Shown: positions 2,746 through 14,207, counted from the stretch's first letter. The stretch: DNA of 32,000 nt from Mycobacterium tuberculosis H37Rv (GCF_000195955.2 NC_000962.3:300001-332000), one strand, 5' to 3'. Program-made: numbers and translations. Notes: a model not told the origin generated them from the letters alone.

Positions 2746-2865
2746 ACCTCGGCGTTCACCGGAAGCGAACACTGTCACACAGCCGGTCGCCAGGTGTGAT
2801 CACAGCGTCATATGTGCGTCACATTCGGCGATTTTTCGGTAATTTGCCCCTCATACCCTCAGACC

Positions 2866-5427
2866 ATGCCTACGGCTGGGAGTTCGCGCGCGCCTGCCGC
2901 GGCTCGCGAGATCGTCGTGGTCGGCCACGGCATGGTGGGCCATCGGCTGGTCGAAGCGGTGCGTGCCCGTGACGCGGACGGGTCGCTGCGGATCACGGTG
3001 CTGGCCGAGGAGGGCGATGCGGCCTATGACCGGGTCGGCCTGACGTCCTATACCGAAAGCTGGGACCGCGCCCTGTTGGCCTTGCCGGGTAACGATTACG
3101 CCGGTGACCAGCGGGTTCGGTTGCTACTAAACACCCGAGTCACCCAGATTGACCGGGCAACCAAGTCGGTGGTCACCGCGGCAGGGCAACGGCATCGCTA
3201 CGACACCCTGGTGCTGGCCACCGGCTCCTACGCATTCGTCCCGCCGGTGCCCGGCCACGACCTGCCCGCGTGCCACGTCTACCGCACCTTTGACGATCTC
3301 GACGCTATCCGCGCCGGCGCCCAGCGCACCCTGGACGGCGGTCACACCGATGGCGGGGTGGTTATCGGTGGCGGCCTGCTGGGCCTGGAAGCCGCCAATG
3401 CGCTGCGCCAGTTCGGGTTGCAGACACACGTCGTCGAGATGATGCCACGATTGATGGCCCAACAGATCGACGAGGCCGGGGGTGCACTACTGGCCAGGAT
3501 GATCGCCGATCTCGGGATCGCGGTGCACGTCGGGACCGGTACCGAGTCGATCGAGTCGGTGAAGCATTCGGATGGCTCGGTGTGGGCGCGGGTTCGCCTG
3601 AGCGACGGCGAGGTGATCGATGCTGGGGTGGTGATCTTTGCCGCCGGCATCCGGCCGCGCGACGAGTTGGCCAGGGCGGCGGGGCTGGCGATCGGCGACC
3701 GGGGCGGTGTGCTCACCGACTTGTCCTGCCGGACAAGCGATCCCGATATCTACGCGGTCGGCGAAGTCGCCGCGATAGACGGGCGGTGTTACGGCCTGGT
3801 CGGGCCCGGATACACCAGCGCCGAGGTGGTGGCCGACCGACTGCTGGACGGGTCGGCCGAGTTCCCCGAAGCGGACCTGTCGACCAAACTCAAGCTGTTG
3901 GGTGTCGACGTCGCCAGCTTCGGCGACGCGATGGGGGCAACCGAGAACTGCCTCGAGGTTGTCATCAATGACGCGGTGAAGCGCACATATGCCAAGTTGG
4001 TGCTCTCCGACGACGCCACCACGCTGCTCGGTGGCGTGCTGGTGGGCGATGCCTCGTCGTACGGGGTGCTGCGGCCGATGGTCGGCGCCGAACTGCCCGG
4101 GGATCCCCTGGCGCTGATCGCGCCGGCCGGATCTGGGGCCGGCGCTGGCGCTTTAGGTGTTGGGGCGCTGCCGGATTCGGCCCAGATCTGCTCGTGCAAC
4201 AACGTCACCAAGGGCGAGCTGAAGTGCGCGATTGCCGACGGTTGTGGGGACGTTCCCGCGCTGAAGTCATGCACCGCGGCCGGCACGTCGTGTGGGTCGT
4301 GCGTGCCGCTGCTCAAGCAGCTGCTAGAAGCCGAGGGTGTGGAGCAGTCCAAGGCGCTGTGCGAGCACTTCAGCCAGTCGCGCGCGGAGCTTTTTGAAAT
4401 CATCACCGCCACCGAAGTCCGGACTTTCTCCGGGTTGCTTGACCGCTTTGGACGCGGAAAGGGTTGCGACATCTGCAAACCCGTGGTCGCCTCTATCCTG
4501 GCATCCACCGGCTCCGACCACATTTTGGACGGCGAGCAGGCCTCGCTACAAGATTCCAACGACCACTTCCTGGCCAACATCCAGAAGAACGGCAGTTACT
4601 CGGTGGTGCCGAGGGTGCCTGGCGGTGACATCAAGCCAGAACACCTGATTTTGATCGGCCAGATCGCACAGGACTTCGGCCTCTACACCAAGATCACCGG
4701 CGGTCAGCGGATCGACTTGTTCGGCGCCCGGGTGGATCAGCTGCCCTTGATCTGGCAGCGACTGGTTGATGGCGGCATGGAATCTGGGCACGCCTACGGC
4801 AAGGCGGTGCGGACCGTGAAGAGCTGCGTGGGCAGCGACTGGTGCCGCTACGGTCAGCAGGATTCGGTGCAGCTGGCCATCGACCTGGAACTGCGTTATC
4901 GCGGGCTACGGGCACCGCACAAAATAAAGCTGGGCGTCTCGGGTTGCGCGCGGGAATGCGCCGAGGCGCGCGGCAAGGATGTGGGCGTGATCGCCACCGA
5001 GAAAGGCTGGAACCTTTACGTCGCCGGCAACGGCGGCATGACGCCCAAGCACGCTCAACTACTGGCCAGCGACCTCGACAAAGAGACGCTCATCCGCTAC
5101 ATCGACCGCTTTCTCATTTACTACATCCGCACGGCCGACCGGCTGCAGCGAACCGCGCCATGGGTGGAATCGCTTGGGCTGGACCATGTGCGCGAGGTGG
5201 TCTGCGAGGACTCGCTGGGTCTGGCCGAGGAATTCGAGGCCGCGATGCAACGCCATGTCGCCAACTACAAGTGCGAGTGGAAGGGCGTGCTGGAGGACCC
5301 GGACAAGCTGTCCCGGTTCGTTTCCTTCGTCAACGCCCCCGATGCCGTCGACTCGACGGTGACCTTCACCGAGCGTGCCGGGCGCAAAGTACCTGTGTCC
5401 ATTGGTATCCCGCGGGTCCGATCATGA
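2866..5427 (+). CDS. nirB: Assimilatory NAD(P)H nitrite reductase large subunit NirB
   Basis: N-terminal FAD/NAD fold (EIVVVGHGMVGHR, VVIGGGLLGLEAA), BFD-like 2Fe-2S motifs (CSCNNVTKGELKCAI, CGSCVP) and a siroheme/4Fe-4S region (SCVGSDWCRYG, GVSGCARECAEA). Start chosen at the internal ATG 2866 (MPTAGSS, 853 aa) rather than the track start 2812. Confidence 0.93.
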   Translation: MPTAGSSRAPAAAREIVVVGHGMVGHRLVEAVRARDADGSLRITVLAEEGDAAYDRVGLTSYTESWDRALLALPGNDYAGDQRVRLLLNTRVTQIDRATKSVVTAAGQRHRYDTLVLATGSYAFVPPVPGHDLPACHVYRTFDDLDAIRAGAQRTLDGGHTDGGVVIGGGLLGLEAANALRQFGLQTHVVEMMPRLMAQQIDEAGGALLARMIADLGIAVHVGTGTESIESVKHSDGSVWARVRLSDGEVIDAGVVIFAAGIRPRDELARAAGLAIGDRGGVLTDLSCRTSDPDIYAVGEVAAIDGRCYGLVGPGYTSAEVVADRLLDGSAEFPEADLSTKLKLLGVDVASFGDAMGATENCLEVVINDAVKRTYAKLVLSDDATTLLGGVLVGDASSYGVLRPMVGAELPGDPLALIAPAGSGAGAGALGVGALPDSAQICSCNNVTKGELKCAIADGCGDVPALKSCTAAGTSCGSCVPLLKQLLEAEGVEQSKALCEHFSQSRAELFEIITATEVRTFSGLLDRFGRGKGCDICKPVVASILASTGSDHILDGEQASLQDSNDHFLANIQKNGSYSVVPRVPGGDIKPEHLILIGQIAQDFGLYTKITGGQRIDLFGARVDQLPLIWQRLVDGGMESGHAYGKAVRTVKSCVGSDWCRYGQQDSVQLAIDLELRYRGLRAPHKIKLGVSGCARECAEARGKDVGVIATEKGWNLYVAGNGGMTPKHAQLLASDLDKETLIRYIDRFLIYYIRTADRLQRTAPWVESLGLDHVREVVCEDSLGLAEEFEAAMQRHVANYKCEWKGVLEDPDKLSRFVSFVNAPDAVDSTVTFTERAGRKVPVSIGIPRVRS

Positions 5428-5452
5428 AGTCCGGGAGGACAAAGGAGGGACT

Positions 5453-5809
5453 GTGACGCTTCTCAACGACATTCAGGTATGGACCACCGCCTGCGCATAC
5501 GACCATCTCATTCCGGGACGTGGTGTCGGGGTGTTACTCGATGACGGTAGTCAGGTGGCACTGTTCCGGCTCGACGACGGCTCGGTGCACGCGGTCGGTA
5601 ACGTCGACCCGTTCTCCGGTGCTGCGGTGATGTCCCGCGGCATCGTCGGTGATCGCGGAGGTCGCGCCATGGTGCAATCGCCGATCCTGAAGCAGGCTTT
5701 CGCGCTCGACGATGGCTCGTGCCTCGACGATCCGCGCGTTTCGGTGCCGGTGTATCCGGCGCGCGTCACACCCGAAGGCCGCATTCAGGTCGCGCGGGTA
5801 GCGGTCTAG
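5453..5809 (+). CDS. nirD: Nitrite reductase small subunit NirD
   Basis: 118-aa product from GTG 5453, preceded by aaaggaggga (strong SD). NirD/Rieske-like fold sequence (VWTTACAYDHLIPGRGVGVLL...VALFRL). It starts 25 nt after the nirB stop. Confidence 0.88.
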   Translation: MTLLNDIQVWTTACAYDHLIPGRGVGVLLDDGSQVALFRLDDGSVHAVGNVDPFSGAAVMSRGIVGDRGGRAMVQSPILKQAFALDDGSCLDDPRVSVPVYPARVTPEGRIQVARVAV

Positions 5810-5824
5810 CTCACCCCGCGAACC

Positions 5825-6349
5825 TCACAGCTTGAGCACACGTCCGGCGATGACCAGATGTACCTCATCGCAGACGGCTGCCACGCGTCGGTTGATTGTG
5901 CCCAGTAGATCGCGAAACAGCACGCCCGAAGAATGGGATGGCACCACCCCGAGGCCGACCTCGTTCGTCACCACGATCGCAGTGGGCAATCCGGTCAGCG
6001 CGGCGCACAACCCGTCGAGCCGTGCCTCGAGGACGGCGTAGACGTCCGCGGTCGCAGCAGACCACAACGCCTCGCCATCCATGATGGCCGTCAGCCAGGT
6101 GCCCAAGCAGTCCACGAGCACGGGACTTCGTGCCTCGGACAAAGCCGTCGCGACGTCGGCCGTTTCCACCGTTAGCCAGGTCGGTGGGCGGCGAGCGCGA
6201 TGCAGTGCGACCCGGGCGTCCCAATCGGGATCGCTGCCAGCGGCCGGGCGGCCAGGCGCGACGTAGACGACGTCGGCCGCATCGCCCAACAACGCTTCGG
6301 CGTGCGTGGACTTTCCCGAGCGGACGCCGCCAGTGACCAGTATCCGCAC
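5825..6349 (-). CDS. cobU: Adenosylcobinamide kinase / adenosylcobinamide-phosphate guanylyltransferase CobU
   Basis: 174-aa ORF with P-loop MRILVTGGVRSGKST. It starts 24 nt downstream of cobQ1. Confidence 0.9.
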   Translation of the reverse strand: MRILVTGGVRSGKSTHAEALLGDAADVVYVAPGRPAAGSDPDWDARVALHRARRPPTWLTVETADVATALSEARSPVLVDCLGTWLTAIMDGEALWSAATADVYAVLEARLDGLCAALTGLPTAIVVTNEVGLGVVPSHSSGVLFRDLLGTINRRVAAVCDEVHLVIAGRVLKL

Positions 6350-6373
6350 CGGGTCATCGTAGGTGGGGCGGCC

Positions 6374-7858
6374 TCATGGCGCGCCCGGAGCGAGAAAGGG
6401 CAAGGTCGGCGGGCAACCATGGCGGGCCAGGTTGAGCAGCGCATCGACGTCGAGGTGTCGTTCGACGAGATCGCCGAGCAGGTCGAGGCGGCGCTCGCGT
6501 GCGGCCAGGAAGCATGAGCCCGACGGGGCGAGGCCGAGCGTCTCTCGCAGGAAGGCCTCGCGCAGGGCGTCGCCTTCCAACGAGCCGTGCCACATGGTGC
6601 CGAACACCGGTCCGTCGCGCGCGCCGCCGAGGAACTCCTCGGCGGTGTCACCGCGGGTGATCCGGCCGTGGTGAATCTCGTACCCCGACGCGGGCACACC
6701 GAGTCCTTCGCCGCGCGGTAGCCGCAGCACCTTGTGGGGGGAAAATGCGGTCTCCACGTCGAGCAAACCCAAGCCCTCGACCTCGGTCACCTGCCCTCCC
6801 GGACCTTCGATGCCGTACGGGTCGCGAATCACCCGGCCCAGCATCTGGAACCCGCCACAAATGCCGAGCAGCGGCTTGCCCGCCGCAACATGCACCAGCA
6901 GCGCACGATCTAGGTCTCGCGCCCTCAGCCAGGCTAGATCGGCGATCGTTGCCCGGGTGCCCGGCAACACGATCAGATCGGCATCGTCCAGCGCGCGGGG
7001 GTCGGAAGCGAACACGACATCCAAGTCGGGCTCAAGACCCAATGCGTCGACATCGGTGAAGTTGCTGATTCGTGGCAGGCGCACGACGGCTACCCGGCGG
7101 GCCCCGGTGCCCGCCGCGCGCCGGCCCTGTAGGTCGAGGGCATCTTCGGAGTCCAGCCAGAGGTCGGGGTGCCACGGCAGGGTGCCGTACACCCTGCGCC
7201 CGGTGACCCGTTCCAGGTCGCGCAGACCTGGCGCCAGCAGGTCGGAGTCGCCCCGAAACTTATTGACCACAAACCCCGCGACCAGCGCCTGGTCCTCGGC
7301 AGCCAGCAACGCGACGGTGCCCAGGAACGCAGCGAACACCCCGCCGCGGTCGATGTCACCGACGACGATGGTCGGCAGTCCCGCATGACGGGCAAGCCCC
7401 ATGTTGACGTAGTCACCTGCGCGCAGGTTGATTTCGGCCGGGCTGCCGGCGCCCTCCGCGACAACGACGTCGTAGCGGGCGGCGAGGGCGTCGAAGGCGC
7501 GGCATGCGGCCTCGGCGAGCGCTCGCCGCCCCGCACACCAGCTTGACGACGCCACCTCGCCCCAGGGCTTGCCCATCAACACCACGTGGCTGCGGTGATC
7601 ACTGGCCGGCTTGAGCAAGACCGGGTTCATCGCCGCCTCGGGCGTGGTCCTAGCCGCGAGTGCCTGCACCCATTGCGCCCGACCGATCTCCACGCCCGTG
7701 CCGTCGGGGCCTCGGCAGACCATCGAGTTGTTGGACATGTTCTGCGCCTTAAACGGCGCCACCCGCACACCGCGTCGGGCCAACGCGCGGCACAGCCCCG
7801 CGGTCACGGCGCTCTTACCGGCGTCGCTTGTCGTACCCGCGACCAGCAGACCCGACAT
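6374..7858 (-). CDS. cobQ1: Cobyric acid synthase CobQ
   Basis: 494 aa. N-terminal dethiobiotin-synthase-like ATPase (VAGTTSDAGKSAVTAGL) and C-terminal class-I glutamine amidotransferase (LLGICGGFQMLG, YEIHHGR). Confidence 0.92.
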   Translation of the reverse strand: MSGLLVAGTTSDAGKSAVTAGLCRALARRGVRVAPFKAQNMSNNSMVCRGPDGTGVEIGRAQWVQALAARTTPEAAMNPVLLKPASDHRSHVVLMGKPWGEVASSSWCAGRRALAEAACRAFDALAARYDVVVAEGAGSPAEINLRAGDYVNMGLARHAGLPTIVVGDIDRGGVFAAFLGTVALLAAEDQALVAGFVVNKFRGDSDLLAPGLRDLERVTGRRVYGTLPWHPDLWLDSEDALDLQGRRAAGTGARRVAVVRLPRISNFTDVDALGLEPDLDVVFASDPRALDDADLIVLPGTRATIADLAWLRARDLDRALLVHVAAGKPLLGICGGFQMLGRVIRDPYGIEGPGGQVTEVEGLGLLDVETAFSPHKVLRLPRGEGLGVPASGYEIHHGRITRGDTAEEFLGGARDGPVFGTMWHGSLEGDALREAFLRETLGLAPSGSCFLAARERRLDLLGDLVERHLDVDALLNLARHGCPPTLPFLAPGAP

Positions 7859-7876
7859 CCGTCTCCCGAAGGTTTC

Positions 7877-9547
7877 TCACTCCACCCGGGTCGCTGAGTC
7901 GGTGTCCCAGGTTCCGGGCATCATTGGCGTGCGTGGGCTGCCGCCGAACGCGTCGTTGGGTAACGTGATCAGTCCTGCGACTTGTCCGGGACTGGCCTTG
8001 TGGGTTGTTCCGGCGAAACCCAGGGTTCCCGCTCCTTGAGGCGAACCCGTCGGGTCGTGGCCGGTTTCGGGGTCTAAATCCAGGTATTCGTAACCGCGGC
8101 CGAGCTGTTTGATCTTTGGCCGCCGACGCCGCTGCGGTTGAACCTGTTCCTCGGGCGCCGCCGCGGCCGCTGGGGCCTCGGCGCTGTCGGGTTCCGGCGT
8201 CTTCTTTCGAACGCCGGTGCCGACGGCCTTCCTGGCCTGCGCCGCCGAGTTCAGGTCACCCACCAGGTACCCGAAGCTTTGTATGCCGGCTCCGGTCACC
8301 GGCGGCGGGGCGGTCACCGGCGGCGGTGGCGGCCCGGGCGGGGGCGTCGGCGCGGTCACGGCCGTGGGGGCCGGGGCTGGGGCTGGAGTTGGGGTGGGGG
8401 TCGGGATACTCGGGGCAATCGCCGCGACCGGCGGGATGACGGGCGGCGCGGATGGCGGGATGCCAACCAGGCCCGCCAGCCCAGACAAGCCCGCGAAGCC
8501 GCCTGCTGCACTCGCAGGGGCAAGGGTCAACGGCGCCAGCGGGGCGGCTAGCAGGGGCAGCGCCGCCGGGAGCAACGCAAGAGTTTGCTCGAGCAGCGTT
8601 TTAACCAGCGCGATGGTATCGGTGATGATCGTGCCAATGGCTTCGACCGTGGTGAACATCAGGGTAAAAGCGATAGTTGCGGGATTGCCCGACGCGAACG
8701 CCGCCGCCAGATCCGCCCCGATGAATGCGAAGGTTTGCGACAGGAAGGCGACATAAGATCCGATGTCCATGGGGTAGCCAAGGGCGAACGCAATGTTGGC
8801 CGGGCTTAGGAAGGTTAGCGGATTACCCAGCGAGGGCAGCCACGGATCAAATCCGGAAAACATCGCTTGCAAAAAGGGGAGGTTGGTCAGCCAGTTGATG
8901 AACGGTTGTATAACGTTGTTGTAGAAGTCGGTATACCCGATCTTCTGCAACCATTGCAGCCATTCCTGGACTTGGTTCGGCTCGTCGGAAGCCGCTGTCG
9001 GCGCGTTGGCTTTCACGATCTGGGGGGCTGGGGTGGTCTGCGGTGCGGCGGCCACCGCCGCGGTCGAGACCGCTTGATAGCTGGCCATCGTGGTGGCGGC
9101 CTGGATCCACATCCGCGCGTAGTCGGACTCGTTGAGCGCGATCGGGATGGTGTTGATGCCGAAGAAGTTCGTCGCCATCAGCACGCCGTGGAGGGCGTGG
9201 TTGGCGCCCAGCTCGGCCAACGTTGGCATCGCGGCCAAGGCGGTGCCGTAGGCGGTGGCCGCGGTTTCTTGCCGGGTGGCCATGGCCGCGCTGTTAGCGC
9301 TGGCCTGCACCAGCCACGCCAGATAAGGGGTATGGGCGGCCACGTAAACCGCGGCGGTCGGGCCGTCCCAGGTGCCGGCCTGTACGGCGGCCAACAGCGC
9401 GGCCAGCTCGTCGGCCGTCTCCGCGTAGGCGATGCTCAACGAGTGCCACCCCTCGGCCGACACCAGCAGCGGACCGGGCCCAGGCCCGCTGCTTAGCAGC
9501 GCCGAGTGCACCTCTGGGGGCGAAGCCATCCAGATCGGGGCGGTCAT
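7877..9547 (-). CDS. PPE2: PPE family protein PPE2 (PPE-PPW subgroup)
   Basis: 556 aa. Pro-Pro-Glu at residues 10-12 (MASPPEVHS) within a ~180-aa PPE domain, a hydrophobic central region, a Pro/Thr/Ala low-complexity tract, a basic RRRRPKIKQ at 473-481, and GFAGT plus PMMPGTW (PxxPxxW) near the C-terminus. Its stop lies 18 nt upstream of the cobQ1 start. Confidence 0.93.
8293..8328. repeat. 18-bp tandem duplication (2 copies, 17/18 identical) inside PPE2
   Basis: cggtcaccggcggcgggg is followed directly by cggtcaccggcggcggtg. It encodes the repeated [12 protein letters not shown] peptide. Confidence 0.8.
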
Positions 9548-9651
9548 CGGCGGCTGACCGCCGGCGGAGGTGTCGTCGCGTCGCGAGCAGCCACGTTAAG
9601 GCCCAGCAGCGTGGTGGTGGCCCGACCGCTAGACAAGGTTTGGAGCGTCAT
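9544..9651 (-). CDS. 35-codon upstream ORF in the PPE2 leader; its stop overlaps the PPE2 start (ATGA)
   Basis: Minus strand: ATG (9651-9649) ACG CTC CAA ... AGC CGC CGA TGA gives [38 protein letters not shown] (9546-9544) overlaps the PPE2 ATG (9547-9545). It lies between the riboswitch aptamer and PPE2. About 74% GC3. Confidence 0.5.
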
Positions 9652-9654
9652 GAC

Positions 9655-9840
9655 CGGTTAGCTTTCTCGGGGTACACCGCCCCGGGTGGCAGGACGCGAT
9701 GACGCGAGTCTCCTGGCTCCCGGATCGTTGCTTGCCTCGCCTTCCAGCCTGTGGCCGTGGCTTACGAGGGTCGCTCCCCGGTGACAGTGGCGGGACCGCG
9801 CCGGATTCTCACCGGCTTCCTGCATCGTCATCGCCTGACG
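9655..9840 (-). promoter_or_regulatory. Cobalamin (B12) riboswitch controlling PPE2-cobQ1-cobU
   Basis: The minus strand carries the conserved core GGAAGCCGGTGAGAATCCGGCGCGGTCCCGCCACTGT (9820-9784) and a B12 box GAGCCAGGAGACTCGCG (9719-9703). A 9-bp closing helix pairs GCGATGACG (9834-9826) with CGTCATCGC (9704-9696). A possible -10 TATTCT lies at 9849-9844. Confidence 0.85.
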
Positions 9841-10073
9841 GGAAGAATATTGGCATGCAGAGCGTGGATTTGCACGTTGAGCGGCATTTGCCAAGCAGGG
9901 GTCGGTCACATCGCACGGTCGCAACAGTCACATGTGTCACTGCACTAGGCGACATCCGATCTGCCCAGCTCTCAGCGACAGGCGCCTGGCCGGCGGTTTT
10001 GTTCCCAAGTTGGTCGTGGCTGTGCGGGATTGGAGGCGGCGTTGACCTGCAGAAACCGAGTTGTCGCGCTTAG
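9699..10073 (+). CDS. Doubtful 124-aa hypothetical ORF (Rv0257-like), probably non-coding
   Basis: An open frame exists, but its first ~140 nt are antisense to the riboswitch aptamer. The product is Arg/Ser/Pro/Cys-rich with no recognisable domain, and no SD is seen. Listed only because it is a typical annotation call. Confidence 0.15.
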   Translation: MTRVSWLPDRCLPRLPACGRGLRGSLPGDSGGTAPDSHRLPASSSPDGKNIGMQSVDLHVERHLPSRGRSHRTVATVTCVTALGDIRSAQLSATGAWPAVLFPSWSWLCGIGGGVDLQKPSCRA

Positions 10074-10181
10074 CTGGGCACAGCGACCATCGCCGACGGC
10101 GGAGCTCGGCGTCGGTGAGTCGCTTCGGTCGGCCGGGGCGGCGCGATTCGGGTTCGACCACGTGGTCGTCGACCAGCTGAC

Positions 10182-10249
10182 GCGCCGAACGTGCAACCAC
10201 GGCGGCAGCGCCCGGCGACGTGTCCCCGCCACCAGTACACGTTCGGCGC
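10182..10249. repeat. Perfect 12-bp inverted repeat with 44-nt spacer downstream of the Rv0258c-like gene
   Basis: GCGCCGAACGTG (10182-10193) is the exact reverse complement of CACGTTCGGCGC (10238-10249). The spacer can form a sub-hairpin (ggcg-gcag-cgcc). Confidence 0.7.
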
Positions 10250-10293
10250 AGCCAGTGCACACACGGCACGGAGTTTAGGACTTACTCATTTGG

Positions 10294-10749
10294 CTATCCG
10301 CGACCGATATCGCCGACCAGGTAGCGCTGCATTGTCGGGCCAATGGCGTCGACCAGCATCTCCACCGACATGGAGTGCAGCGGCTCAGAACGCACCCCGT
10401 AGCGCATGATGCCCAAACCGACGAGTTGAGCGGCGCACAGCGACGCTCGGATGGCAATCTTGTCGGCCCCGAGCATCTTGAGCAACGGGTTGAAGACCGG
10501 TCCGATGAACATGGACTGCACGATCTCGGCGGTCTTGGCTAGCCCGGTGGTTGCGATGGCGCTCGCCGCAAAGGGACCGCCGCCGGCCGCATCCCAGGTG
10601 GTGATCAGCACGTAGAGGGTTCGGCGGCCTACCTGGTTGACGCTTCCGGTGACGATTTTTTCGATGAAATCCGGTGTGCCGAAGGGCAACCGCAGCATCT
10701 TCGCTACCGGGTCGAGGAGTCCGCGTGATGGCTCTTGGCTACGGGCCAT
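10294..10749 (-). CDS. Conserved hypothetical protein resembling only the C-terminal (ligand/dimerisation) domain of TetR-family regulators (Rv0258c-like)
   Basis: 151 aa. The C-terminal part AAQLVGLGIMRYGVRSEPLHSMSVEMLVDAIGPTMQRYL resembles the common actinobacterial TetR C-domain pattern (recognised by eye). No HTH, and an in-frame stop lies 8 codons upstream of the ATG. Confidence 0.6.
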   Translation of the reverse strand: MARSQEPSRGLLDPVAKMLRLPFGTPDFIEKIVTGSVNQVGRRTLYVLITTWDAAGGGPFAASAIATTGLAKTAEIVQSMFIGPVFNPLLKMLGADKIAIRASLCAAQLVGLGIMRYGVRSEPLHSMSVEMLVDAIGPTMQRYLVGDIGRG

Positions 10750-10773
10750 GGTGTCAGGATCACCCCGCTGTGA

Positions 10774-11517
10774 TCAAAGATCAAGCGTCACCGGTGTCGG
10801 CGTGCCATGCCAGCGGTGCAGCCGTTGCTGACGTGCTACCGCGCTGCGAAATCGGTTCGCGACCAGCTGTGCCAAGCCCGGATGGGTGCCGAGCGGTCGG
10901 GTTACCACATCGGCACCGGATGCCCGCAGCCGCTCTTGAAAAAGGCCTTCTGCCAACAGGAAGGAGGCGACCGCGACGCGGCGCGCACCTCGGTTGGCTT
11001 CGGCCCGGTCTCGGGCCCGCTGCACAGCCGTGCGCACATCCGGACCGCCGGTGCCCGCAAATCCCATGTCCACCCATGATCCGGTCAGTTCGGACACTAG
11101 CGTCCGAGTGGTGTGCAGGTCGGCACGTGCCCGCCTATCCGACGCGCCGGCCGCTGCGAGGATCACTGAATCGCCAGGACGCCAACCGGATTCCACCAGC
11201 TGCTGGGTGACTATCTGCGCGATCTCACGGCATGGCCCCAACGCGGGGGTGACCGTGACATGCGGGTGCGCACTGGCTGCGACATGAGCGGGCAGGTCGG
11301 TGCGAACATGATATCCGCGGGACAAGAACGCGGGCACCACGATTGCGGGACGGCAGGAAAGGGCGGAAAGCACTTCGCTGGGTGAGGGTCCGAGCACATC
11401 AACGAAGGCGACCTGCACAGTGCGGTCGACGAGCGCGCTCACTTGCGCGGCGATGTCCGCTATCATCGCGACACCGGACGGTCTGCGGGTTCCGTGGGCC
11501 GTCAAGATCAGGTTCAT
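10774..11517 (-). CDS. CbiX/SirB-type sirohydrochlorin chelatase, two-domain long form (Rv0259c-like)
   Basis: 247 aa. The N-half has LILTAHGTRR (His8) and PAFLSRGYHV (His70), as in SirB/CbiX active sites. The C-half repeat is degenerate (ILAAAGASDRR, VASFLLAEG). Its start overlaps the upstream gene's stop (ATGA). Confidence 0.8.
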   Translation of the reverse strand: MNLILTAHGTRRPSGVAMIADIAAQVSALVDRTVQVAFVDVLGPSPSEVLSALSCRPAIVVPAFLSRGYHVRTDLPAHVAASAHPHVTVTPALGPCREIAQIVTQQLVESGWRPGDSVILAAAGASDRRARADLHTTRTLVSELTGSWVDMGFAGTGGPDVRTAVQRARDRAEANRGARRVAVASFLLAEGLFQERLRASGADVVTRPLGTHPGLAQLVANRFRSAVARQQRLHRWHGTPTPVTLDL

Positions 11518-12659
11518 ACGTCATCGTGCCGGCTGTCAACGGCGAGACGGTAGCCACGTTTCACCACTGTTGCCACGATGTTCTTGTCGCCCAGAGCCGT
11601 TCGTAGCCGCAGGACGGCGGTGTCCACGGCGTGGGTGTCGCTGCCGTCGCCGGGTAGGACGCGTAGCAAGTCGCCACGAGAGACGACGCCGCCGGGGCGA
11701 TGTACCAACGCGCGCAAAATCGCCATTCCGGACGGCGATAGTGGCTTCACCGAATCATCCACCAGCACAGAGGTTCCACGGATCTCGATCACGTGGCCGG
11801 CTGCTTTGAACGTGCACGAACCCAGCAGCGGCAGCTCCTCGGCAATGTGGCGGGCTAAGGCTCCCAACCGCATTCGCTCGGGAGCCGACGTCGGGACGCC
11901 CTTTCGGATCAACGGCCGCGAAGTTACCGGGCCGACACACATCGCGTGCACGTCGGTACGCAGCGCAGCCAACAGTTGGTCCTCGATATCCAATTCACGG
12001 CTGCGTTCTAGCACCGCGGCTGCGGCAGGTGCCGACGTGAAGGTGACCGCGTCGAATTGTCGTCGCGCGATCCCGGTGACTAAATGGTCGAACACGCCGC
12101 CTAGTGGCGCCGGCTTCCACCGGTAAACCCGGATCGGCACCACTTGCGCGCCGGCGAAACGTAACCCGCCCAGAAATTCCGGAAACGGGTCCCAGCTGTC
12201 GGCGGCACCGTGCAGCTGGACGGCAATACGCGTACGGGACACCCCCGATTCGAGCAGATATTCCAGCACTTCATGCGACGATTCAGAGTCGGGGGACCAC
12301 TCTTCACGCAGGCCGGCGGCACGCAGCGCACCAGTTGCCTTTGGTCCGCGGGAGATGATCCGGGCCGACGACAACGATTCCAGGAGCTCGTTGGCCAGCC
12401 CCCACCCCTCGGCCGCGGCCAACCAGCCGCGAAATCCGATGCCGGTGTGGGCGACCAGAATGTCAGGCGGGTCGGCGATCAACGCCTCGGTGTTGTTCTG
12501 CAGTTCATCGTCGTCGGGAAGCGCGATCATCTTGATCGCTGGGGCACTACAGACCTCGGCGCCCTGGCGGCGAAGCAATGCGCACAGCTCTTCGGCGCGG
12601 CGAGCGGATGTCACCGCGATCCGGTAGCCGGTCAGTGGCGCCGAGTGTGCCTGGGCCAT
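11514..12659 (-). CDS. Fusion protein: uroporphyrinogen-III synthase (HemD)-like domain plus C-terminal OmpR/PhoB-type winged-helix DNA-binding domain (Rv0260c-like)
   Basis: 381 aa. The N-terminal ~250 aa are HemD-like (YRIAVTSARRAEEL...ILVAHTGIGFRG...DAVTFTSAPAA). The C-terminal part LSPSGMAILRALVHRPGGVVSRGDLL...AVDTAVLRLRTALGDKNIVATVVKRGYRLAV is a Trans_reg_C-type wHTH. No receiver domain. Confidence 0.8.
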   Translation of the reverse strand: MAQAHSAPLTGYRIAVTSARRAEELCALLRRQGAEVCSAPAIKMIALPDDDELQNNTEALIADPPDILVAHTGIGFRGWLAAAEGWGLANELLESLSSARIISRGPKATGALRAAGLREEWSPDSESSHEVLEYLLESGVSRTRIAVQLHGAADSWDPFPEFLGGLRFAGAQVVPIRVYRWKPAPLGGVFDHLVTGIARRQFDAVTFTSAPAAAAVLERSRELDIEDQLLAALRTDVHAMCVGPVTSRPLIRKGVPTSAPERMRLGALARHIAEELPLLGSCTFKAAGHVIEIRGTSVLVDDSVKPLSPSGMAILRALVHRPGGVVSRGDLLRVLPGDGSDTHAVDTAVLRLRTALGDKNIVATVVKRGYRLAVDSRHDDV

Positions 12660-12758
12660 ATGACGTGTCTAGGCCTGTGAGGTTTCAGTCGCGTTACCAG
12701 GCAATTGCTGCCGGATTGCCCATTGCCGATACCCACCTCTGTGGCTTCGGGCGTGGCG

Positions 12759-14168
12759 CTAGACGTAGGCCAAGCCCGCGGGTGCGGTGGTCGCCGGCAC
12801 GAGCTCGCCGGCGCTCTTTAGGCCCCGACGCACATAAATCGCCCAGGTCAGCACCGAGGCGACCAGGTAGAACACCCCGAAGGCCCAAAATGCCGAGGTG
12901 GCCGTGCCACTGGTCAGGTAGGACTCTCGCAGAGCCAGGTTGACGCCCACTCCGCCGAGCGCGCCGACCGCCCCGGCCAGGCCGATCAGCGCGCCTGACA
13001 TCGACCGCGACCACTGCCTGCGCTCGGCTTCACTGATCTGCAGCGAATGGCTGCGCGCCTCGAAGATCGACGGAATCATCTTGTACACAGAGCCATTGCC
13101 GATGCCGGACAAAATGAACAGAGCCGTGAAGCCGATGACGTAGCCGACCATCGTCGCAGTCGGCATCGGCCCGGCCAGGTGGTCACCGAAAGTGCTTGCG
13201 CTGATGAGTATTCCGGTGGCCAGCAGCATGGCGCAGAAGGCAGCTAGGGTGACTCGGCCGCCACCGATACGGTCGGCGAGCTTGCCGCCATATATTCGGG
13301 ACAGCGATCCCAATAGCGGCCCCAGGAAGGCGATCTGGGCCGCATGCAGCGAGGCCTGCGCCGTGCTCTGACCGCTGGCGATGAAGTTGATCTGCAGCAC
13401 CTGACCGAATGCGAAAGAGAACCCGATGAACGAGCCGAAAGTGCCGATGTACAGCAGCGAGATCACCCAGGTGTGCGGCTCGGACACTACCGCACGCATG
13501 GTGTTCAGCTCGATGCGATACTCCGTCAGGTTGTCCATGTACAGTGCGGCGCCGAGGCCGGCGACCGCCAGCAGCACCAGATATATCGCGCACACCCAGT
13601 AGGGCTCGCGGTCACCGGCCGTTGCGATCACCAGCAGGCCGACCAACTGCACCATCGGCACCCCGAGGTTGCCGCCACCCGCGTTGAGCGCAAGCGCGGC
13701 GCCCTTGAGTCGTTGCGGAAAGAAAGCGTTGATGTTCGTCATGGAGGCGGCGAAGTTGCCGCCGCCGAGGCCGGCTAGCGCACCGCACACCAGATACGGC
13801 CACAGTGGCAAACCAGGGTTGGCCAGCAACAGAATGCTGCCAACGGTCGGAATCAACAGCACCAGTGCGGAAAAGATGGTCCAGTTGCGCCCCCCGAACT
13901 TTGCGGTGGCAAATGTGTAAGGGAAGCGCAGGCATGCCCCGACCAAGGTCGCGGTGGCGCCGAGCAGGAACTTGTCGCCGGCGGAAAAGCCGTACACCGA
14001 TGTGGGCATGAACAGCACCATCACCGACCAGAGGGACCAGACGGAAAATCCGACGTGCTCGGCGGCCACCGACCAGATCAGATTGCGTCGGGCGATGAAT
14101 TTGTTGCCGGCCTCCCACGCCACCGAGTCTTCGGGATCCCAGTCGGAGATCTGGTGGGAACGGCCCAT
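12759..14168 (-). CDS. narK3: NarK-family MFS nitrate/nitrite transporter NarK3
   Basis: 469 aa, about 12 hydrophobic spans, NarK nitrate-signature-like AGLGGGNFAASMTNI. Paralogous to the ORF at 21331..22722. Confidence 0.9.
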   Translation of the reverse strand: MGRSHQISDWDPEDSVAWEAGNKFIARRNLIWSVAAEHVGFSVWSLWSVMVLFMPTSVYGFSAGDKFLLGATATLVGACLRFPYTFATAKFGGRNWTIFSALVLLIPTVGSILLLANPGLPLWPYLVCGALAGLGGGNFAASMTNINAFFPQRLKGAALALNAGGGNLGVPMVQLVGLLVIATAGDREPYWVCAIYLVLLAVAGLGAALYMDNLTEYRIELNTMRAVVSEPHTWVISLLYIGTFGSFIGFSFAFGQVLQINFIASGQSTAQASLHAAQIAFLGPLLGSLSRIYGGKLADRIGGGRVTLAAFCAMLLATGILISASTFGDHLAGPMPTATMVGYVIGFTALFILSGIGNGSVYKMIPSIFEARSHSLQISEAERRQWSRSMSGALIGLAGAVGALGGVGVNLALRESYLTSGTATSAFWAFGVFYLVASVLTWAIYVRRGLKSAGELVPATTAPAGLAYV

Positions 14169-14176
14169 ACTGACCC

Positions 14177-14207
14177 CTATCGTGATCGACGTTCTCGATC
14201 ACGCTAG
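14177..14207. promoter_or_regulatory. 31-bp near-perfect palindrome abutting the narK3 ribosome-binding site
   Basis: The arms of ctatcgtgatcga-cgttc-tcgatcacgctag match at 12/13 positions, with a perfect 9-bp core. It lies 8 nt upstream of the narK3 ATG, and its 3' arm overlaps the AGGGG SD on the mRNA. Confidence 0.6.

Follow-up and report, generated by a model that had tools for sequence, protein, structure and literature searches.

PPE2 of Mycobacterium tuberculosis, a candidate corrinoid-uptake factor behind a B12 riboswitch

The stretch of DNA analysed here, called the window below, covers 32,000 nucleotides (nt) of Mycobacterium tuberculosis H37Rv (NC_000962.3:300001-332000), and positions are counted from its first letter. 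It contains PPE2, a minus-strand gene that lies between a cobalamin (vitamin B12) riboswitch and the genes cobQ1 and cobU. The locus, its regulation and the hypothesis that PPE2 is a transporter are already described. Riboswitch function, the relay through an upstream open reading frame (uORF) and the co-transcription of ppe2 and cobQ were shown by others, while the anatomy, the conservation and the neighbourhood pattern of the locus come from the present analysis. What is new is comparative evidence that moves the hypothesis away from cobalt and from salvage by the cob genes and towards B12 import, with PPE2 as a candidate corrinoid-uptake factor of the envelope, and that suggests an origin for the uORF relay. 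The locus is composed as follows, in the order of transcription.

9839 to 9850, minus strand: end of the promoter and transcription start site (TSS); the published TSS at genome position 309839 is window position 9839.
9686 to 9867, minus strand: cobalamin riboswitch aptamer RF00174, a full-length model match (Rfam, 93.3 bits against a gathering threshold of 31.5, E = 3.4e-22).
9652 to 9685, minus strand: expression platform, with the Shine-Dalgarno (SD)-like motif GAGAAAG (9668-9662) serving uPPE2.
9544 to 9651, minus strand: uPPE2, a uORF of 35 codons that starts 35 nt past the aptamer and whose TGA overlaps the PPE2 ATG (ATGA, 9547-9544).
7877 to 9547, minus strand: PPE2, 556 amino acids (aa), an open reading frame (ORF) called on the window.
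9044 to 9532, minus strand: N-terminal PPE domain of PPE2, residues 6-168 (PF00823, E = 3e-58).
8543 to 8902, minus strand: conserved hydrophobic central core of PPE2, residues 216-335, including the segments 251-261 and 305-320.
7907 to 8044, minus strand: PPE-PPW C-terminal region of PPE2, residues 502-547 (PF18878, 58.6 bits against a cutoff of 27).
7859 to 7876, minus strand: spacer of 18 nt between PPE2 and cobQ1, GAAACCTTCGGGAGACGG, containing a GGGAG SD-like motif.
6374 to 7858, minus strand: cobQ1, cobyric acid synthase, 494 aa (NF001989, 579 bits against a cutoff of 273).
6350 to 6373, minus strand: spacer of 24 nt between cobQ1 and cobU.
5825 to 6349, minus strand: cobU, adenosylcobinamide kinase / cobinamide-phosphate guanylyltransferase, 174 aa (PF02283, 163.5 bits against a cutoff of 27).

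The identities of PPE2 (PPE domain and PPE-PPW region), CobQ and CobU are supported by Pfam and NCBIfam model searches, for PPE2 by Pfam only, as NCBIfam holds no model for it. Curated family models place CobQ and CobU among the corrinoid enzymes, CobU by its Pfam model; against NCBIfam NF004469 it scores 146 bits, slightly below the cutoff of 161. An earlier note on this DNA had described three co-directional genes with gaps of 18 and 24 nt, a single B12 riboswitch, no adjacent PE gene and a long hydrophobic central region in PPE2, and all of this is borne out. The ORF coordinates give exactly these gaps, and the riboswitch, upstream of PPE2 on the same strand and above the gathering threshold, is the sole Rfam match in the 32-kb window. 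ORF calls and Pfam agree that no PE-like ORF flanks PPE2 in the window, its neighbours being the riboswitch and an ORF with only a TetR_C match upstream and cobQ1 downstream. The hydrophobic peptide quoted in the note corresponds to residues 273-315, within a region (residues 201-345) that has a mean Kyte-Doolittle hydropathy of +0.81 and nine charged residues. Its description of PPE2 as the first cistron has to be corrected, as uPPE2 (9651..9544) precedes it and overlaps its start. The claim of one co-transcribed operon holds for the ppe2-cobQ junction, which is published as co-transcribed, whereas reverse transcription PCR across cobQ-cobU did not work in the same study (PMC11260477); we regard the membership of cobU as likely.

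The published leader of 292 nt with the uPPE2 AUG at +189 (PMC11260477) matches the window exactly, from 9839 to 9547 and at 9651, respectively. A -10-like element (AATATT/TATTCT) lies at 9850-9844, and the portion of the riboswitch within the transcript is 9839-9686. Kipkorir et al. (PMC11260477) showed that the switch acts directly on uPPE2, as a compact OFF switch of translation with B12-dependent masking at the uPPE2 expression platform, and that PPE2 translation depends on uPPE2 via termination-reinitiation. In their hands, lacZ fusions were B12-responsive, and ppe2 and ppe2-cobQ amplicons were about 10-fold lower with adenosylcobalamin (AdoB12). Both PPE2 and cobQ1 moreover belong to the core B12 regulon of the M. 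tuberculosis complex (MTBC), which has seven genes (PMC10924821). Taken together, the promoter with its TSS at 9839 drives a B12-repressed transcription unit headed by the 292-nt leader with the aptamer. Bound B12 masks the SD and the start codon of uPPE2, and PPE2, which has no SD of its own and is translated only by termination-reinitiation at the ATGA, is silenced along with the uORF. Added B12 also lowers the mRNA of PPE2 and cobQ1, and probably that of cobU.

We retrieved orthologues by a genome-contig scan with the conserved central domain of PPE2 alone, a query that holds no riboswitch or cob information. The resulting sample comprises 80 loci of slow growers in Mycobacterium and Mycolicibacter, M. 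leprae and M. lepromatosis among them. In 76 of these loci, a cobalamin riboswitch homologue lies upstream of PPE2 in the same orientation, with Rfam scores of 84-95 bits in seven of eight sampled loci. The remaining four consist of two cut contigs, one locus with a sub-threshold upstream copy (L037, 27.8 bits) and one locus (L078) with none. Only seven of the 80 loci have cobU or cobQ downstream of PPE2, so that conserved co-localisation with cob genes is not observed: cobU follows PPE2 in five M. kansasii-group species only, and, beyond the window, cobQ and cobU together follow it in M. leprae and M. lepromatosis only, there as fragments. Since the switch is kept with PPE2 (76/80) and not with the cob genes (7/80), it belongs to PPE2 rather than to cobQ/cobU. 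On this sample, the attachment of cobQ1-cobU appears as a lineage-specific add-on, confined to the clade of M. tuberculosis, M. leprae and M. kansasii. The same counts bear on the suggestion that the switch is that of cobQ1-cobU and that PPE2, without any B12 function, was inserted by chance and is merely co-regulated. PE/PPE genes are mobile and expanded, cobQ and cobU are classical B12-regulon genes, and a 2025 review stresses that the operon association is not conserved (PMC12713380). Yet in M. leprae the cob genes are decayed while the switch and PPE2 are intact, and the comparison of 76 with seven loci effectively refutes this model, which we rejected as having hardly any probability left.

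More consistent neighbours of PPE2 than the cob genes are the genes of an ATP-binding cassette (ABC) importer resembling BtuFCD, with FhuF and DUF7676 modules, to which it is linked in 23 of the 80 loci (17 + 4 + 2). In 17 loci, FhuF-domain or ABC genes stand between the switch and PPE2. Two of these, L026 and L058 (M. shimoidei), have the complete set of a Peripla_BP_2 substrate-binding protein (SBP), a FecCD permease and an ABC ATPase fused to FhuF_C, with DUF7676 in addition in L058; in 15 loci, a FhuF-like gene of about 235 aa occupies this place, with or without DUF7676. Another four loci, from three Mycolicibacter-group isolates and one metagenome-assembled genome, carry two tandem PPE2 paralogues. 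In three of the four, each copy has a clear riboswitch of its own; in L054, the match at the first copy is weak and partial. Each of the four converges with a third riboswitch-controlled operon, of SBP, FecCD, ABC/FhuF and DUF7676 genes. Finally, M. leprae and M. lepromatosis have frameshifted remnants of SBP, FecCD and ABC-FhuF genes, divergent and upstream of the riboswitch. According to NCBIfam, the importer permease is closest to BtuC; DUF7676 is widespread among Actinobacteria and has no NCBIfam model. Outside the mycobacteria, one Rhodococcus and one Streptomyces locus were checked, and both have the SBP-FecCD-ABC(+FhuF_C)-DUF7676 operon with an upstream cobalamin riboswitch (Rhodococcus coprophilus, 69.8 bits; Streptomyces tirandamycinicus, 83.7 bits). 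The importer genes lie as follows in the coordinates of the respective loci.

L058, 2778-9062: riboswitch-controlled importer operon (Peripla_BP_2, FecCD, ABC ATPase, fused or separate FhuF_C, DUF7676).
L026, 3096-9089: riboswitch-controlled importer operon of the same kind.
L081, 2518-7576: riboswitch-controlled importer operon of the same kind.
L083, 2410-7561: riboswitch-controlled importer operon of the same kind.
L001, 5868-6947, strand opposite to PPE2: decayed importer remnants.
L002, 5698-6948, strand opposite to PPE2: decayed importer remnants.

Judging from gene content and order, a B12-regulated type II ABC importer operon is thus found beyond the mycobacteria, and PPE2 is attached to it in slow-growing mycobacteria. 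The FhuF-like 2Fe-2S module and DUF7676 count as uncharacterised members of this B12 import system and might serve as a corrinoid reductase or a processing factor. Searches of PDB sequences with DUF7676 and the SBP gave nothing useful. Short tblastn matches of an extended SBP query that overlapped riboswitches were traced to an over-extended query ORF and discounted as artefacts. In the window itself, remnants of SBP, FecCD, ABC-FhuF, DUF7676 and cation diffusion facilitator (CDF) genes were sought, and the only matches were to translated riboswitch and leader DNA. The tandem arrangements form 'B12 islands' in L007, L059 and L062 (about 7200-15850) and in L054 (about 7190-16381, where the contig ends). 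Their two PPE2 paralogues are 45-48% identical over the N-terminal two-thirds, and one of the switches of L007 is of the AdoCbl RF01482 type.

These linkages also bear on what is taken up. PPE2/Rv0256c was named a candidate cobalt transporter, 'CbtG', by Rodionov et al. in 2003 (as cited in PMC4428469, PMC2667541 and PMC12713380), so that the transporter idea is not new. As a cobalt-ion uptake component, PPE2 would supply cobalt for corrin synthesis. Apart from the 2003 proposal, as relayed by the first two of these papers, the operon link to cobQ1 and cobU in the window is in line with such a role, most non-tuberculous PPE2 carriers make B12 and need cobalt, and a convergent CDF cation-efflux gene in about 20 loci provides the sole hint of a metal ion. 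M. leprae, however, has no B12 pathway and M. tuberculosis does not make B12 (PMC10924821), yet in both of them the switch is retained and PPE2 is intact. The importer linked to PPE2 is a chelate-type system (BtuC/Fhu/Fec) and not a CbiMNQO or NiCoT cobalt system, and co-essentiality with bacA and methylmalonyl-CoA mutase (MCM) in a non-producer fits a corrinoid rather than cobalt. The CDF gene lies on the opposite strand and is confined to part of the tree. We therefore favour corrinoids over cobalt, on account of the two non-producers and the chelate-type importer, and consider a dedicated cobalt function very improbable. The earlier note had left the substrate open between corrinoids and cobalt: an envelope uptake role related to B12 remains best supported, and cobalt fits less well. 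Its view that PPE2 feeds salvage by CobU and CobQ does not reflect a conserved logic, given that cob genes are downstream of PPE2 only in the window and in seven of the 80 loci. Examples of the convergent CDF (Cation_efflux) gene are L026 9105-9800, L010 9142-9798 and L058 10612-11286, all on the minus strand; it could point to a cobalt or zinc link or be merely clade-specific synteny.

In M. leprae, PPE2 is an intact protein of 572 aa behind a riboswitch of 94.5 bits, while cobQ and cobU are fragmentary, and this protein (ML1828c) is among the few intact PPE genes of that species (PMC1660551). Although devoid of a B12 pathway, M. leprae retains bacA, the adenosyltransferase and cobT (PMC4428469). 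In M. tuberculosis, transposon sequencing (TnSeq) places PPE2 in a co-essentiality module with bacA, mutA/B, the adenosyltransferase Rv1314c and citE, for which no mechanism was offered, and CRISPR interference (CRISPRi) revealed a defect of PPE2 on propionate and itaconate (both bioRxiv 10.1101/2022.09.27.509804).

At the protein level, PPE2 has the hallmarks of its family at both ends. The PPE motif is at residues 10-12 of the N-terminal domain, and the C-terminus has GFAGT at 510-514 and PMMPGTW at 541-547, in agreement with the 44-aa C-terminal region with GFxGT and PxxPxxW that defines the PPE-PPW group (PMC1660551). In between, 19-residue hydropathy windows exceed 1.6 with peaks of 1.79 (starts 322-325) and 1.66 (start 290). 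Beside this prediction of membrane spans stand conserved D, E and K residues within the hydrophobic helices (D261, D279, E302, D310, K316 and E320) and the fact that PPE proteins are exported rather than Sec-inserted. Conservation over 55 full-length orthologues is as high in the central core (216-335) as in the PPE domain, with a mean top-residue frequency of 0.80, compared to about 0.55-0.60 for the PPW region and the proline-rich basic region described as a nuclear localisation signal (NLS). For the central domain, AlphaFold2 gives an all-helical model of modest confidence (predicted local distance difference test, pLDDT, 64.4), in which 262-286 and 289-334 form a long hairpin; the model of the full-length protein (pLDDT 48.8) is not good enough for folds to be compared. 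When 1.84 billion representatives were searched with a profile of the central domain, 27 matches resulted, all PPE2-like, and a word-indexed protein search with the central region returned 24, all PPE2-like fragments and none a full-length orthologue. By these matches, PPE2 is a bona fide PPE-PPW protein with an orphan functional domain and not a BtuB homologue. The short leader of most orthologue loci leaves no room for a PE gene. The next gene downstream of PPE2, in the same orientation, codes for a PE-PPE domain protein (PF08237, hydrolase-like) in M. shimoidei (L058, 9159-10607, plus strand) and in a metagenome-assembled genome (L009, 9193-10066, plus strand). The p67phox-binding residue is given as 'W263' in a review; residue 263 is Gly here, and the nearest central Trp is W236, within the DPW at residues 234-236 (window 8840-8848), so that 'W263' is probably a slip in the numbering of that review.

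This distribution of conservation matters for the view that PPE2 is purely a secreted, host-directed effector, which blocks nitric oxide and reactive oxygen species via its NLS and p67phox binding and for which B12 is a cue of the host niche. Published macrophage and mouse work (PMC12302996, PMC12713380) and the detection of PPE2 in culture supernatant speak for it, and a recent review favours it (PMC12713380). Nevertheless, the riboswitch-PPE2 unit occurs in about 76 species, many of them represented by environmental isolates or metagenome-assembled genomes, and PPE2 lies inside or beside B12-type ABC importer operons. The most conserved part is the hydrophobic core and not the C-terminal region with the NLS, and PPE2 is co-essential with bacA, mutAB and the adenosyltransferase. 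As the whole function of PPE2 an effector role is thus rather unlikely; the host effects are possibly an added, MTBC-specific moonlighting role, and effector roles may exist alongside an uptake role.

The best explanation for the combined observations is that PPE2 acts as an envelope factor for corrinoid uptake, which on balance we think probable. PPE2 would most likely be exported by a type VII system to the envelope, where its conserved hydrophobic helical core would, under B12 scarcity, help corrinoids (B12, cobinamide) to get across the mycomembrane or to dock there. It might do so either by forming a channel or by acting at the surface, as a receptor or binder, and would pass the corrinoids to an inner-membrane importer, in M. 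tuberculosis BacA/Rv1819c. The mycomembrane step of cobamide import was called unresolved by the 2025 review (PMC12713380), and other PPEs, including PPE-PPW members, mediate the uptake of solutes, heme or iron (PMC7140425, PMC12802285, PMC12607722).

Several points weigh against this interpretation. The export of PPE2, its localisation to the mycomembrane, its specificity for corrinoids and the mechanism of passage are each inferred. AdoB12 binding by the switch in vitro is weak (dissociation constant 446 uM; PMC11260477), and the Mycolicibacter acidiphilus locus (L078) has no riboswitch even at a relaxed threshold. Homology of the central domain to transport-proven PPEs was not found among the 1.84 billion representatives, the structure models are of low confidence (pLDDT 49 and 64), and Foldseek returned nothing with E <3 from the PDB. 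A screen in M. tuberculosis, as cited in PMC4428469, identified BacA as the sole determinant of B12 uptake, and screens for B12 uptake in M. marinum yielded lipid and permeability genes and not PPE2 (PMC11237697). These uptake selections used high B12, however, so that B12-repressed PPE2 would be off in such screens. PPE2 is also reported in culture supernatant, with activities on host cells (PMC12302996). Finally, the TnSeq and CRISPRi phenotypes are possibly polar on cobQ1/cobU. The CRISPRi assay is polar and its in vitro methods are silent on B12 supplementation, so that we gave this phenotype little weight.

The M. marinum screens, pointing to general permeability as the determinant of B12 entry (PMC11237697), are at the same time compatible with another B12-linked envelope role for PPE2, such as permeability remodelling under B12 scarcity or help in the export of another protein, without any handling of corrinoids. 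Some PPEs affect membrane integrity (PMC12607722). Such a role leaves unexplained the tight and repeated coupling to a specific chelate-type ABC importer as well as the translational coupling to the reading frames of importer operons, and we deem it improbable.

This translational coupling, in turn, offers an origin for uPPE2. Past the aptamer, the SD and the ATG keep their place in every architecture, and by position the start of uPPE2 is homologous to that of the first gene, btuF-like or FhuF-like, in other species. The first codons ATG TCA CGT CGT ... TGG GTG GCC GTC (MSRR-C-W-V-A-V, also written MSRR-C-W/G-V-A) are common to three kinds of ORF, namely the SBP lipoprotein signal peptide (L058, L026), FhuF-only genes (MSRRACVAL...) and, in the M. 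paraffinicum-like loci L015, L035 and L046, the uORF (MSRxxAWVAV...). The stop codon overlaps the PPE2 start in FhuF-like genes as well as in 29 of the 62 short-leader uORFs. The uORF of the MTBC and of M. leprae (MTLQ...) starts 2-3 nt off the conserved start position and the sequence similarity is weak, so that homology is positional only. As the published uPPE2 alignment was limited to matches of >95% identity (PMC11260477), it could not reveal an importer-gene origin.

In the simplest reading, the uORF would have arisen by serial internal deletions that took out the importer genes but spared the initiation site under riboswitch control as well as the stop/start junction with PPE2. The starting point would have been a BtuFCD-like operon under riboswitch control (SBP, FecCD permease, ATPase with FhuF_C, DUF7676), to whose 3' end PPE2 was added and which, being also present in the Rhodococcus and the Streptomyces locus, appears older than PPE2. 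Most slow-growing lineages would then have lost the ABC genes, leaving the riboswitch, a relic uORF and PPE2. The full scenario is that PPE2 represents the missing mycomembrane step of B12 import in slow growers, was recruited to an older actinobacterial importer operon and survived the loss of the importer, with uPPE2 as the remnant of the 5' end of a lost btuF-like gene. We consider it a serious possibility that falls somewhat short of being probable.

B12 availability modulates virulence, and M. tuberculosis and M. leprae depend on host B12 (PMC10924821). If PPE2 is the entry factor for corrinoids, the uptake pathway would be complete, running from PPE2 via BacA to the adenosyltransferase, and the resemblance of PPE2 mutants to bacA and mutAB mutants in mice would be accounted for. 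It would also open a delivery route for B12-conjugated drugs, and the literature on PPE2 as a host effector would need re-examination. The M. shimoidei-type operon, which holds both the ABC importer and PPE2, would provide a natural test system, and the comparison yields a concrete and cheap experimental design.

The surroundings of the locus in the window are of a different nature. Upstream, beyond the switch, lie the TetR_C-only ORF, a CbiX-like gene and a HemD/Trans_reg_C fusion, and downstream nirBD converges on the locus. The TetR_C ORF (10294-10749, minus strand, 151 aa) matches only the C-terminal TetR domain (TetR_C_16, residues 39-144); 24 nt separate it from the upstream CbiX-like gene, which leaves no space for an N-terminal helix-turn-helix, and it looks like a truncated regulator. 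The CbiX-type chelatase gene overlaps the fusion of HemD and a winged-helix (Trans_reg_C) domain by 4 nt (10774-12659, minus strand), and nirB-nirD occupy 2812-5809 on the plus strand, at the other flank of the operon. The CbiX, HemD and nirBD neighbours look related to siroheme and nitrite reductase rather than to cobalamin and do not seem to be B12 context. An ORF of 124 aa (9699-10073, plus strand) runs antisense over the riboswitch aptamer and is probably no real gene. A generic promoter and terminator scan of 5600-10400 found no sigma-70-type promoter and no minus-strand terminator, a scan that is uninformative for mycobacterial promoters. Loci of the Mycolicibacter group also have SAM-IV riboswitches (about 108-110 bits), located upstream of PPE2 at a distance of a few kb (L007 4669-4788 and L078 4796-4915, both minus strand), which are unrelated.

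Compared with known systems, the leader of ppe2 is closest to that of the M. tuberculosis metE cobalamin riboswitch and to other uORF-relay leaders (PMC11260477), with which it has in common a B12 OFF switch, translated uORFs and NUGA stop/start coupling. It differs from the metE switch in being compact and in tolerating a broader range of ligands, and from all of these leaders in that its uORF is suggested to derive, as a remnant, from the 5' end of an ancestral btuF-like gene. The 'CbtG' proposal concerned the same gene and built on the same clues, i.e., the upstream B12 element, a predicted membrane-spanning region and its place in one operon with cob genes. Here, corrinoid is preferred over cobalt, an outer-envelope PPE exported by a type VII system would take the place of a classical inner-membrane permease, and the conserved partner is a BtuFCD-like importer and not the cob genes.

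BacA/Rv1819c, the inner-membrane cobalamin ABC transporter, would serve in the same pathway as PPE2; the two are co-essential in TnSeq and both are retained in M. leprae (PMC4428469). BacA nonetheless resides in another compartment, belongs to another protein family, is experimentally proven and is not riboswitch-controlled. Among the PE/PPE nutrient-uptake proteins, namely PPE51 (glycerol, glucose, disaccharides), PPE36/37/62/64 (heme) and PE5-PPE4 (mycobactin iron), PPE2 is similar in its N-terminal PPE domain, and its PPE-PPW C-terminus is common to the iron/heme group (PMC7140425). The role proposed for PPE2 would by analogy be a comparable one, that of letting a hydrophilic nutrient through the mycomembrane. 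B12, like heme, is a tetrapyrrole. Unlike these proteins, PPE2 has a central domain unique to its orthologues and no adjacent PE partner, and it is the only one under riboswitch control.

A parallel in logic is the Gram-negative pair of BtuB-TonB and BtuFCD, which likewise combines an outer-membrane component with a type II ABC importer under repression by a B12 riboswitch. PPE2 is predicted to be all-helical and is not a TonB-dependent beta-barrel. It has no sequence or fold similarity to BtuB, as the features of the latter (22-strand beta-barrel, plug and TonB box) have no counterpart in its Pfam matches, in its all-helical model or among Foldseek matches in the PDB, and mycobacteria lack TonB (PMC11237697). 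In organisation, PPE2 resembles the Gram-negative system in that, in M. shimoidei (L058) and in L026, it stands in one operon with the BtuF-, BtuC- and BtuD-like genes.

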